From Candidatus Dormiibacterota bacterium (lineage in GTDB: Bacteria > Chloroflexota > Dormibacteria > Aeolococcales > Aeolococcaceae), in contig CAVPXI010000006.1 in assembly GCA_963709585.1 (NCBI GenBank), positions 128,001 to 192,000 on the forward strand: 64,000 bases of DNA, given 5' to 3'. Position numbers and translations under genes: made by a program. Position 1 is the stretch's first letter; every line of letters begins with the position of its first letter. The notes beneath the pieces were generated by a model. The model searched no databases. It was given only the letters and a program-made list of their open reading frames with translations, and had not been told where the DNA came from. Shown piece after piece: positions 38,050 to 39,849 of this stretch.

Positions 38050-38980
38050 CCGGTCGGCGCGCCCGAGTCCTCGATCGTCGCGGCGAACGGTCCCGACGAG
38101 GTTGGTGGCATACGGCGGCGAGGCCGACGGCTCGGTCCATGTCCACGCTGGGGTCGTCGGGCAGCGCCCAGACGATATCCGAGGCCAGCCACTCCCTCGT
38201 GGCCGCAACCGGAGCCGGGGCTGGGGCTGCAGGCGCAGCCGATGGTTCGGGCTCGACAGCGCGCTTGATCCGCTCGACGGCGCCCGGGGCGACTCTTCGA
38301 ACCAGCGCGGCTGGGACTCGAATCAGTTGCGACCGGGAGGGCCGAGCCGGGAGTGGTTCGGCCGGCATCACCGCCGGCGGCTCCGTGGCCATCGCCCCCT
38401 CAGGGAAGACACGGACCATGAGGCTGACCTGGTCGAAGACGGTGCGGAGCAGCGCGATCAGTGCCGGCGGCGTGAACTCCATGAGGTGGGATCGGGCGAG
38501 GAGATGTCCGTCCGGGACGTGGTCGATCGACCACAGCCGGTTCGGGGTGCCGACAAACGCGACGCCGCCGTCATTGAGCAACTCCGCCATCCCTCGGACG
38601 AAGGCGAATGGATCGACAACGTGTTCGAGGACCTCGGAGCTCGCAACCAGGTCATATGACCTGGGCGCGCAGACGTCCGGCAACGGCTTCATCAGGTCCG
38701 CGACGAAGAATCGAACGCCGGGTGCGCCGAAGTTTTCGGTGGCATACTCGATGGCCGCGGGGGAGTTGTCGATGCCGTCGACGGTCGCGCCGGCCCGAGC
38801 CAGCAGCGCGGCGCCGTAGCCCGTCCCGCAGCCGAAGTCAAGCGCGCGCATCCCGTCGGTGACAAGGTTCTCGGCGATCCACTCGTAGACGCCCTCGTGG
38901 CCTGCCGATGTGATGTCTCTCGTCGCCGACGGAACGTATCTGTCCTGCCCGTCGGCGGTCGCGAGATCAACTTCGGTCAT
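38036..38980 (-). CDS. Class I SAM-dependent methyltransferase
   Basis: LDFGCGTGYG, YDLVASSEVLEHV, GTPN. Confidence 0.9.
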   Translation of the reverse strand: MTEVDLATADGQDRYVPSATRDITSAGHEGVYEWIAENLVTDGMRALDFGCGTGYGAALLARAGATVDGIDNSPAAIEYATENFGAPGVRFFVADLMKPLPDVCAPRSYDLVASSEVLEHVVDPFAFVRGMAELLNDGGVAFVGTPNRLWSIDHVPDGHLLARSHLMEFTPPALIALLRTVFDQVSLMVRVFPEGAMATEPPAVMPAEPLPARPSRSQLIRVPAALVRRVAPGAVERIKRAVEPEPSAAPAAPAPAPVAATREWLASDIVWALPDDPSVDMDRAVGLAAVCHQPRRDRSPRRSRTRARRPVSDA

Positions 38981-39141
38981 GGCGCCGGAAGCTTACCTGC
39001 CGAGGTGCGTCGTCGAAGGTTGTCCTGGCTACTATTGGCAGGCTCGGCTGGCAGACACCGCGGCCATACGCGGCTCTCGGTCGCTGGGGGTATCACCCTC
39101 GACGTCAGGGAGGCCGGCGACAAGGCCAAAACCCCTTACAT

Positions 39142-39218
39142 CCCAGGGTAGCCAAGTGGTCAAGGCAGCGGTCTGTAAAACCGTGTACCGATGGTTCGAA
39201 CTCCATCCCCTGGGACCA
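39142..39218 (+). tRNA. tRNA-Tyr(GTA), atypical: C1-G72, A73, short variable loop, encoded CCA
   Basis: CCCAGGG/CCCTGGG acceptor, GCC/GGC D-stem, GCGGT-CTGTAAA-ACCGT, GATGG-TTCGAACT-CCATC, ACCA. Confidence 0.88.
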
Positions 39219-39273
39219 CCACATACCCCGAGACGACTCCTGCGCCGTCCGGCCGGTGCGGAGTCCGCGGTTA

Positions 39274-39849
39274 CTAGGGTCCGCCGTCGTATTGGACCTC
39301 TTGCGCACTGTTGCGGACGTAGAGGAAGACGTGTTGCCCAGGAGGGACATCGCCTCCTGCGAACTGCCCCGTCGCGGGATCGCGCAGAAGTATCTGGCTG
39401 CCCCCGATGAGCTTTCGGATGTGCGCGATTCCGCCGATCGTCCATGTGACGATGGCGCCCGCGTGCGCGTGGCTCAATGCGGCGAGCGGGCCCGTGGCAC
39501 TCCCCGCAAACGCATACCACCCGGTGCCACCCGGACCCGTGAAGTTCCAGTAGCAGATGGTGTTCCCGGCGGGGACGTAGCTCTGCTCGTCGCCGCACGA
39601 CGCCGTGAACGCGACGTTGATTTCCAGCGACGCGATGACGATGTGGCCGGCAACGGGAAACGCTGTGGGAATAGGCGTTGGGGTTGGAGCCGGTGTCGGG
39701 GTCGGAGTCGGAGCAGCGGTGGCTGTCGGAGTGGGAGTTGGCGTCGGGGTTGCGGTTGGCGTCGCCGAGGGAGTCGTGCTGCTCGCCCCGCAGCCCGCGA
39801 GGATCATCGCGCCACCGACTGCAAGTCCCTGGATTGCGCGCCCGTTCAT
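39274..39849 (-). CDS. Lipoprotein with PT repeat linker and degenerate sortase-like domain
   Basis: Lipobox LAGC, (PT)n, then GPGGTGWYAFAGS...GPLAALSHAHAGAIVTWT. Confidence 0.65.
   Translation of the reverse strand: MNGRAIQGLAVGGAMILAGCGASSTTPSATPTATPTPTPTPTATAAPTPTPTPAPTPTPIPTAFPVAGHIVIASLEINVAFTASCGDEQSYVPAGNTICYWNFTGPGGTGWYAFAGSATGPLAALSHAHAGAIVTWTIGGIAHIRKLIGGSQILLRDPATGQFAGGDVPPGQHVFLYVRNSAQEVQYDGGP

Follow-up and report, generated by a model that had tools for sequence, protein, structure and literature searches.

Textbooks give the first base pair of tRNA-Tyr, C1-G72 or G1-C72, as what keeps tyrosine charging in bacteria apart from that in archaea and eukaryotes, and the orthogonal pair in widest use for genetic-code expansion is built on this difference. 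The locus considered here, a tRNA-Tyr gene of the C1-G72 kind in a bacterial chromosome, raises the question of which enzyme charges such a tRNA and what has become of the bacterial pair. The gene lies in a 64,000-nt stretch of DNA (the window, G000:C6:128001-192000) from the genome of a member of the Dormibacteria (Chloroflexota), which amounts to 3.52 Mb in 24 contigs, with 66.6% GC and a completeness of 88.8%. An initial annotation, made from the sequence of the window, left two alternatives: either the lineage uses an archaeal-type TyrRS, or the gene encodes a second, specialised tRNA that accompanies a canonical pair.

The explanation that best fits the material assembled below, and to which we give a probability of roughly 0.87, is that this is the only working tRNA-Tyr of the cell, that it is charged by the only TyrRS, an enzyme of archaeal type, and that the two together displaced the bacterial pair once, early in the history of this Dormibacteria family. 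The features of the tRNA and their conservation, the type of the enzyme, the mutually exclusive distribution of the two tyrosine systems and the occurrence of a tRNA-tyrS cassette were all computed directly.

The tRNA-Tyr gene and its identity elements

Of the two tRNA genes that ARAGORN calls in the window, one is a tRNA-Tyr(gta) at exactly 39142-39218 on the forward strand, and the same stretch scores 63.3 bits against Rfam RF00005 (gathering score 29; E 8.6e-13). The parts of the gene are as follows, with the source of each in brackets.

39142..39218, + strand: tRNA-Tyr(GUA) gene, class I, 77 nt with encoded CCA (ARAGORN; Rfam RF00005; family homologues)
39142..39148, + strand: 5' acceptor strand CCCAGGG, with C1 at 39142 (sequence; partner strand 39208-39214)
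39151..39166, + strand: D arm with a 3-bp stem GCC/GGC, weakly tRNA-Cys/Gln-like (sequence; D-stem pairs invariant in the alignment)
39168..39184, + strand: anticodon arm, loop CTGTAAA, anticodon GTA at 39175-39177, A37 at 39178 (sequence)
39185..39189, + strand: variable loop of 5 nt, without a long arm (sequence; Rfam alignment)
39190..39207, + strand: T arm with an 8-nt loop, TTCGAACT, at 39195-39202 (Rfam alignment)
39208..39218, + strand: 3' acceptor strand CCCTGGG, with G72 at 39214, A73 at 39215 and CCA at 39216-39218 (sequence)

Read from the sequence, the first pair joins C 39142 to G 39214, and the archaeal/eukaryal identity set is complete in this tRNA: C1-G72, A73, the anticodon GUA and no long variable arm. 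The archaeal tyrosine set, as tabulated in PMC9976931 (Table 1), consists of C1-G72, A73, G34, U35 and A36. The description from which the analysis started, a tRNA-Tyr with GTA, C1-G72, A73 and a 5-nt variable loop, is thus borne out by sequence, ARAGORN and Rfam alike. It had also called the D and anticodon arms tRNA-Cys-like. The likeness is present, with 33/37 positions shared with the genome's tRNA-Cys, but it is weak, because an unrelated tRNA-Thr, the next most similar, already matches at 30/37.

Over the whole genome ARAGORN reports 49 tRNA genes, and the gene at 39142-39218 is the one tRNA-Tyr among them. The same run calls a tRNA-SeC (tca) at G000:C8:56340-56434, outside the window, which suggests selenocysteine decoding in this genome.

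Conservation of the cloverleaf

When the 77 bases were searched by BLAST in 61 genomes from the window's family, near-full-length homologues (E <= 1e-19) turned up in 50. Twenty homologues (19 distinct rows), two of them from Anaerolineae-type genomes, were aligned. Standard pairs fill 380/380 stem cells of this alignment, and nine pairs, three of them in the T stem, show compensatory changes on both sides. The pairing signal was matched in 0/500 shuffles, nor did any slid register come near it. The positions C1, C2, G72, A73, G34, T35 and A36 are invariant in 20/20 aligned tRNAs, the C1-G72 pair standing in 19/19 distinct rows. Conservation of the tRNA-Tyr cloverleaf exceeds chance.

One feature had escaped the initial annotation. 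The T loop in the window has 8 nt, one inserted base relative to the Rfam model, and that of most relatives has 7 nt (TTCGACT, TTCGAAT or TTCGAGT). The longer loop is limited to the window, G321, G316 and, in another form, L103; all four are assemblies of few contigs, and their near relatives have 7 nt. The extra base is probably a homopolymer assembly error, an error suspected because the 8-nt loops all occur in few-contig assemblies and because the same genome holds a tRNA with a 6-nt anticodon loop. If real, a loop of 8 nt would be unusual for an elongator tRNA. The other tRNA just mentioned is a 70-nt ARAGORN call at G000:C6:54303-54372, outside the window, with a two-letter anticodon 'tt' and the anticodon loop CTTTAA. 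It may be a tRNA-Lys(UUU) from which one homopolymer T is missing; the genome has no other tRNA-Lys(TTT).

Partial copies of the tRNA also occur among the relatives. Three genomes carry a 5'-half copy (positions 1-42, 92-98% identical), at G330:C24:105933-105974, G316:C2:550668-550709 and G310:C2:549528-549566, each on the same strand as the full tRNA-Tyr and 2-32 kb away from it; none is found in the window genome. These copies may be the ends of elements inserted at tRNA-Tyr.

The letters of the gene were also compared with public data, by setting positions 38700-39700 against Logan contigs of four runs (two metatranscriptomes and two runs labelled RNA-Seq that are probably DNA). Over 39142-39218 the sole difference is one base missing in the T loop. 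The anticodon and the discriminator base are unchanged, and the combination GCA/U73, which the annotation had named as the sign of a tRNA-Cys, is not seen in contigs of these four runs. Contig depth is higher over tRNA-Tyr; it sums many related organisms with different flanks and is uninformative on transcription, because it pools their contigs. Equally uninformative was a promoter and terminator scan of 38800-39500, with 0 sites of either kind.

These data bear on the idea that the gene belongs to a tRNA-Cys (GCA/U73), or to a tRNA specific for another amino acid, and that a wrongly sequenced anticodon or discriminator base disguises this. Such a misreading would agree with the 33/37 D and anticodon arm positions common to the genome's tRNA-Cys, and signs of homopolymer error do occur in the assembly, in the 8-nt T loop and in the 6-nt anticodon loop elsewhere. 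However, GTA and A73 are invariant in 20/20 homologues of separate assemblies, contigs of the four runs show no other letters there, a separate and normal tRNA-Cys lies at C8:3572, and a likeness of which 30/37 positions are already found in the next tRNA is weak. A misread identity is scarcely credible against this background.

The only tyrosyl-tRNA synthetase found is of archaeal type

Class Ic synthetases are covered by a single Pfam model, PF00579, which matches two genes in the genome, one TrpRS and one TyrRS. The TrpRS is bacterial (TIGR00233, 306.1 bits). The TyrRS gene is the following.

G000:C14:309292-310419, outside the window: tyrS, archaeal-type, 375 aa (PF00579, NF006330)

Against the archaeal equivalog NF006330 the enzyme scores 396.1 bits (cut-off 220), whereas it reaches 88.4 bits against the bacterial tyrS model TIGR00234 (cut-off 113.8), covering profile positions 10-210 of 406; the bacterial TyrRS of sister genera cover positions 17-404 of that model. 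Among solved structures the closest is the P. horikoshii enzyme 2cyc_A (375 aa; E 3.5e-118), whose residues 4-363 align with 4-362 of the window-genome TyrRS at an identity of ~53% (189/359 columns, hand count). The sole Pfam domain is PF00579, at residues 32-351 of 375, and the enzyme therefore has no S4-like tail. The annotation had proposed to look for that domain, and both Pfam and the end-to-end alignment with 2cyc_A find it absent. Its first alternative, an archaeal-type TyrRS in the lineage, is likewise supported by the profile scores and by the match to 2cyc_A, and the listing of tRNA-Tyr and tyrS genes that it called for yields one class-I tRNA-Tyr and one archaeal-type TyrRS in the genome.

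The archaeal-type tyrS and the bacterial trpS stand tail to tail, 4 nt apart, at G000:C14:309292-311596 (L001:147-2451), and this neighbourhood recurs in the same-genus genomes G321, G336, G340 and G344.

Residues that could read the first base pair were located by transferring M. jannaschii numbering through a representative aligned to 1j1u_A. On this alignment R148, R191 and K192 of the window-genome enzyme equal R132, R174 and K175 of M. jannaschii, and H335 and D338 equal H283 and Asp286, the last likewise a residue with a role in that enzyme. All five equivalents are invariant in 79/79 clade TyrRS sequences. In the M. jannaschii enzyme, according to Tsunoda et al. (2007, PMC1934993), C1 is read by Arg174 and, through water, by Arg132, G72 is read by Lys175, and His283 stacks on G34.

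The mechanism that these findings point to can be put simply. The tRNA at 39142-39218 would be the one working tyrosine tRNA of the cell, and the 375-residue archaeal-type enzyme, as the only TyrRS of the genome, would charge it. The enzyme would do so without the S4-like domain by which bacterial TyrRS hold the long variable arm, the first base pair being read instead by the conserved Arg/Arg/Lys patch of archaeal TyrRS. We infer the charging and the expression of the tRNA from the genomes, and in the same way the horizontal transfer and the sequence of steps discussed below.

Distribution of the two tyrosine systems

The 61 family genomes were sorted by the tyrosine system that they carry, with E <= 1e-40 as the threshold for archaeal-type TyrRS.

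Archaeal-type TyrRS at E <= 1e-40: 50/61 family genomes (49 over the NF006330 cut-off)
Class-I tRNA-Tyr: 50/61 family genomes
Archaeal-type TyrRS and class-I tRNA-Tyr together: 49/61 family genomes
Bacterial tyrS over cut-off: 9/61 family genomes, plus one partial at a contig end
Class-II tRNA-Tyr: 8/61 family genomes, all among the ten with bacterial tyrS
Both systems in one genome: 0/61 family genomes

The archaeal-type enzyme is common to at least 18 genera of the family. One part only is found in two genomes, both fragmented: G329 (69% complete), in which the tRNA was not found, and G320 (85% complete), with a fragment only of TyrRS. The counts take in three unpublished genomes, G272, G173 and G341, all with both archaeal-type parts; without them each part is present in 47/58 genomes and both parts in 46/58. 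Among the carriers of the archaeal-type system are the single-contig genomes of the window's own genus, G321 and G336, which are 88-90% complete.

What the archaeal-type pair would have replaced can be seen in sister genera. Two of them with bacterial tyrS (G083 and G224) have an 84-85-nt class-II tRNA-Tyr with G1-C72 directly upstream of tRNA-Thr(GGT). At the tRNA-Thr(GGT) site of the window genome an ORF ends just upstream, and there is no tRNA-Tyr. A pattern for class-II tRNA-Tyr, CTGTAAAN{18,32}GGTTCRANTCC, gave 0 matches in five genomes and proved too strict, and an RF00005 scan and ARAGORN were used instead. Descent of the window's tRNA from the class-II tRNA-Tyr of the family by loss of the arm was considered and rejected: acceptor, anticodon and T stems, compared by eye, all differ, and the new tRNA-Tyr is therefore not simply the old one minus its arm.

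The window genome is 88.8% complete, so the absence of a second pair there is by itself no proof. A specialised or relic tRNA, standing beside a canonical pair that an incomplete assembly in 24 contigs had missed, would accommodate that figure. The rest of the family speaks otherwise: neither class-II tRNA-Tyr nor bacterial tyrS was found in the 51 family genomes with either archaeal-type part, the single-contig G321 and G336 included; bacterial tyrS over cut-off occurs only in genomes without class-I tRNA-Tyr; and the canonical site upstream of tRNA-Thr(GGT) is empty in the window genome. The second alternative of the annotation, a specialised tRNA beside a canonical pair, thus fails to find support for want of a canonical part in any of the 51 carriers, and a missed canonical pair, already largely refuted, is very improbable.

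In an even sample of 301 genomes across the phylum, NF006330 was over cut-off in 12, all from the window's family (14 family genomes sampled). A search of species-representative genomes for relatives of the TyrRS returned 187 stretches, of which the best 80 were kept. Among these best 80 of 187, the closest loci, from 95% identity downwards, belong to Candidatus Dormibacterota/Dormibacteria, and loci at 56-65% identity to Anaerolineae, Aggregatilineales or Chloroflexota. The best 120 homologous proteins listed for the enzyme are close Dormibacteria relatives only, with no archaeal names. Bacterial tyrS was not found in five other Chloroflexota carriers of archaeal-type TyrRS, and four of these five have a class-I C1-G72 tRNA-Tyr, namely L078 (G348), L080 (G349), L136 (G351) and L135 (G352), one of the four with an ordinary 4-bp D stem. 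In still other Chloroflexota (e.g. G251:C102, G228:C1, G045:C6) bacterial-type TyrRS matches lie in frames of 650-730 aa, some 250-300 aa (approximately) over the usual length.

A tRNA-tyrS cassette and its relics

In 17 loci among the best 80 of 187, a class-I C1-G72 tRNA-Tyr lies directly upstream of tyrS on the same strand. The gap between the two genes is ~12-30 nt in the loci checked (L044, L046 and L050), and the loci with this cassette include L078 (Aggregatilineales) and L080 (Anaerolineae). In the window's genus and in other relatives with TyrRS at least 71% identical, again among the best 80 of 187 loci, no tRNA stands within 3 kb of tyrS, and in the window genome the two genes are on separate contigs.

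Traces of the cassette persist in some genomes. In both G164 and G335 the tRNA is present in full at one site, while only its 3' half (88-92% identical) remains beside tyrS, ~50-140 nt upstream; the linked copy would seem to have decayed after a duplication. G335 holds two cassette copies in opposite states of decay (G335:C4:183665-184899 and G335:C19:2139-3414), one with a full tRNA and a broken tyrS, the other with a tRNA 3' half and an intact tyrS. No T-box or other Rfam element reached its gathering score next to tyrS in nine loci of the clade.

These arrangements suggest how the pair may have come in. It probably entered as a two-gene cassette with tRNA-Tyr directly upstream of tyrS, and the native bacterial TyrRS and class-II tRNA-Tyr would have been displaced once, early in the family. 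Later, in the window's genus, the tRNA and tyrS would have drifted apart.

The linkage also bears on a different use for a C1-G72 tRNA. Streptomyces carries anticodon-mutant tRNA-Pro genes, a model for a mistranslating tRNA. By analogy, the window's tRNA might be a tRNA-Pro-like C1-G72/A73 body that is charged by ProRS and places proline at Tyr codons. The three kinds of tRNA-Pro in the genome do have C1-G72 and A73, and bacterial proline identity includes A73 and G72 according to PMC9976931 (Table 1). The same table has bacterial ProRS needing G35 and G36, which are absent in the window tRNA. The gene at 39142-39218 is, moreover, the only tRNA in the genome able to read Tyr codons, and the genome also has its cognate archaeal-type TyrRS, whose gene stands next to the tRNA in the 17 loci (best 80 of 187). 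Proline charging accordingly ranks as highly unlikely, a shade behind the missed canonical pair and ahead of a misread anticodon. Because the tRNA-Pro share C1-G72 and A73, discrimination between Tyr and Pro would rest on the anticodon, judging by the published identity sets (PMC9976931).

History of the proposed replacement

The frame for the two systems was an RpoB tree (IQ-TREE, quick mode) with 21 rows: 17 genera of the family contribute 18, and other Dormibacteria families the three outgroup rows; the RpoB ORFs were chosen by likeness to the RpoB of the window genome. The tyrosine-system label needs one change on this tree. A single clade (SH-aLRT 94) holds 13 of the 14 archaeal-system rows, and the genera with the bacterial system are basal, beside the outgroups, all of which are bacterial-type. 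One early replacement in the family is the simplest reading; it falls short of proof because the branch that decides for a single replacement has a support of 70 and because of the uncertain placement of G164. The RpoB sequences themselves differ in length, ~1129 aa in genera g1, g177 and g179 vs ~1173-1176 aa in other family genera, a difference that corresponds to a ~45-residue indel near profile position 550 and marks a subclade.

A tree of the enzyme was built from 76 rows, a sample without Thermococcales and most named archaea. The 32 Chloroflexota rows form one clade (SH-aLRT 96), in which 6 Anaerolineae-type rows (SH-aLRT 99) group apart from 23 Dormibacteria rows (SH-aLRT 99). Closest to this clade from outside are a Pacearchaeota MAG contig (2.3 kb, 47% GC) and metagenome representatives; also near are sequences labelled 'archaeon', Micrarchaeota and Daviesbacteria (CPR), the three named among the 10 nearest representatives. 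The TyrRS phylogeny proposed by the annotation thus places the enzyme with Anaerolineae-type relatives, among DPANN, CPR and metagenome TyrRS.

Neighbours of this kind, DPANN archaea and Daviesbacteria, are what one would expect if the tRNA and the TyrRS lay on misbinned contaminant contigs of an archaeon or a CPR bacterium. But the contigs concerned measure 337 kb (tRNA) and 493 kb (tyrS), the one-contig genome G321 has both (tRNA at C1:2628254, tyrS at C1:105120), the GC content of tyrS loci in close relatives (64-69%) resembles that of the genome, and the pair recurs in 49 family genomes. Contamination is accordingly about as improbable as the misread tRNA-Cys.

Since 289/301 sampled genomes are without the enzyme and its spread is patchy across classes, the distribution suggests that the cassette was transferred within the phylum. 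A fuller scenario, which we rate at about even odds, begins with a self-contained cassette, archaeal in ancestry, that passed between Chloroflexota classes (Anaerolineae-type, Dormibacteria); close to the base of one Dormibacteria family it would then have assumed the decoding of tyrosine and ousted the native pair, all in one event. If this is true, it would be a natural orthogonal-pair takeover in free-living soil bacteria, with the basal genera as its before state, the intact cassettes as its intermediate, and the tRNA relics and separated genes as its outcome.

Comparison with known systems

The kind of system described here is already known, because it has been published for CPR bacteria: Mukai, Reynolds, Crnkovic and Soll (2017, Life 7:8, PMC5370408) described archaea/eukarya-type TyrRS and C1-G72 tRNA-Tyr in CPR phyla, and stated that such TyrRS were known from no other bacteria. 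The remark of the initial annotation that the C1-G72 form occurs in CPR bacteria was right on this point (Mukai et al. 2017, PMC5370408). A literature search, conducted outside subscription journals and bioRxiv supplements, found no report of archaeal-type TyrRS or C1-G72 tRNA-Tyr in Chloroflexi/Chloroflexota or Dormibacter, and the portion of a 2026 preprint on TrpRS/TyrRS history that was available makes no mention of the system in Chloroflexota/Dormibacter. What appears to be new is the occurrence of the system in a phylum other than CPR, together with the contrast between genera of a single family, the cassette and its relics.

Natural crossings of the tyrosine barrier have been published only for CPR, with their unusual small symbiotic genomes; a crossing is now found in ordinary-sized, widespread soil bacteria. 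Genera with the bacterial pair and genera with the swapped pair stand side by side in one family, which amounts to a natural before-and-after comparison, and the linked tRNA-tyrS cassette suggests a route by which the swap could proceed without a lethal intermediate. An archaeal-type TyrRS and tRNA that have long worked in bacterial translation may also interest the engineers of orthogonal pairs.

The closest parallel is with the CPR systems (PMC5370408), in which a bacterium likewise has an archaea/eukarya-type TyrRS together with a C1-G72 tRNA-Tyr and the enzyme groups with DPANN-like TyrRS; the Daviesbacteria TyrRS falls near the window-genome clade in the tree. That said, the host here is a non-CPR bacterium with a 3.5-Mb, 66.6% GC Dormibacteria/Chloroflexota genome, and sister genera of the same family still have the bacterial pair. 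The tRNAs of the window's clade that were read are, moreover, all without a variable arm, whereas many of the CPR ones keep the arm (PMC5370408).

The TyrRS pairs of M. jannaschii (PDB 1J1U) and P. horikoshii (PDB 2CYC) resemble the present one in domain make-up, length, C1-G72-reading residues and tRNA identity set. The differences are the bacterial host, an identity of ~53% to 2cyc_A, a 3-bp D stem of the tRNA-Cys/Gln kind, and A37 where archaeal tRNA-Tyr has G37.

A laboratory counterpart also exists, in that E. coli has been engineered with an archaeal or eukaryotic TyrRS-tRNA pair in place of its native one (cited as refs 17 and 18 in PMC5370408). In those strains, as in the Dormibacteria, a C1-G72 pair, enzyme and tRNA together, has taken the place of the bacterial one entirely. 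Unlike the engineered strains, the replacement in the Dormibacteria is natural, it is old enough to be common to at least 18 genera of the family, and its two genes later became separated.
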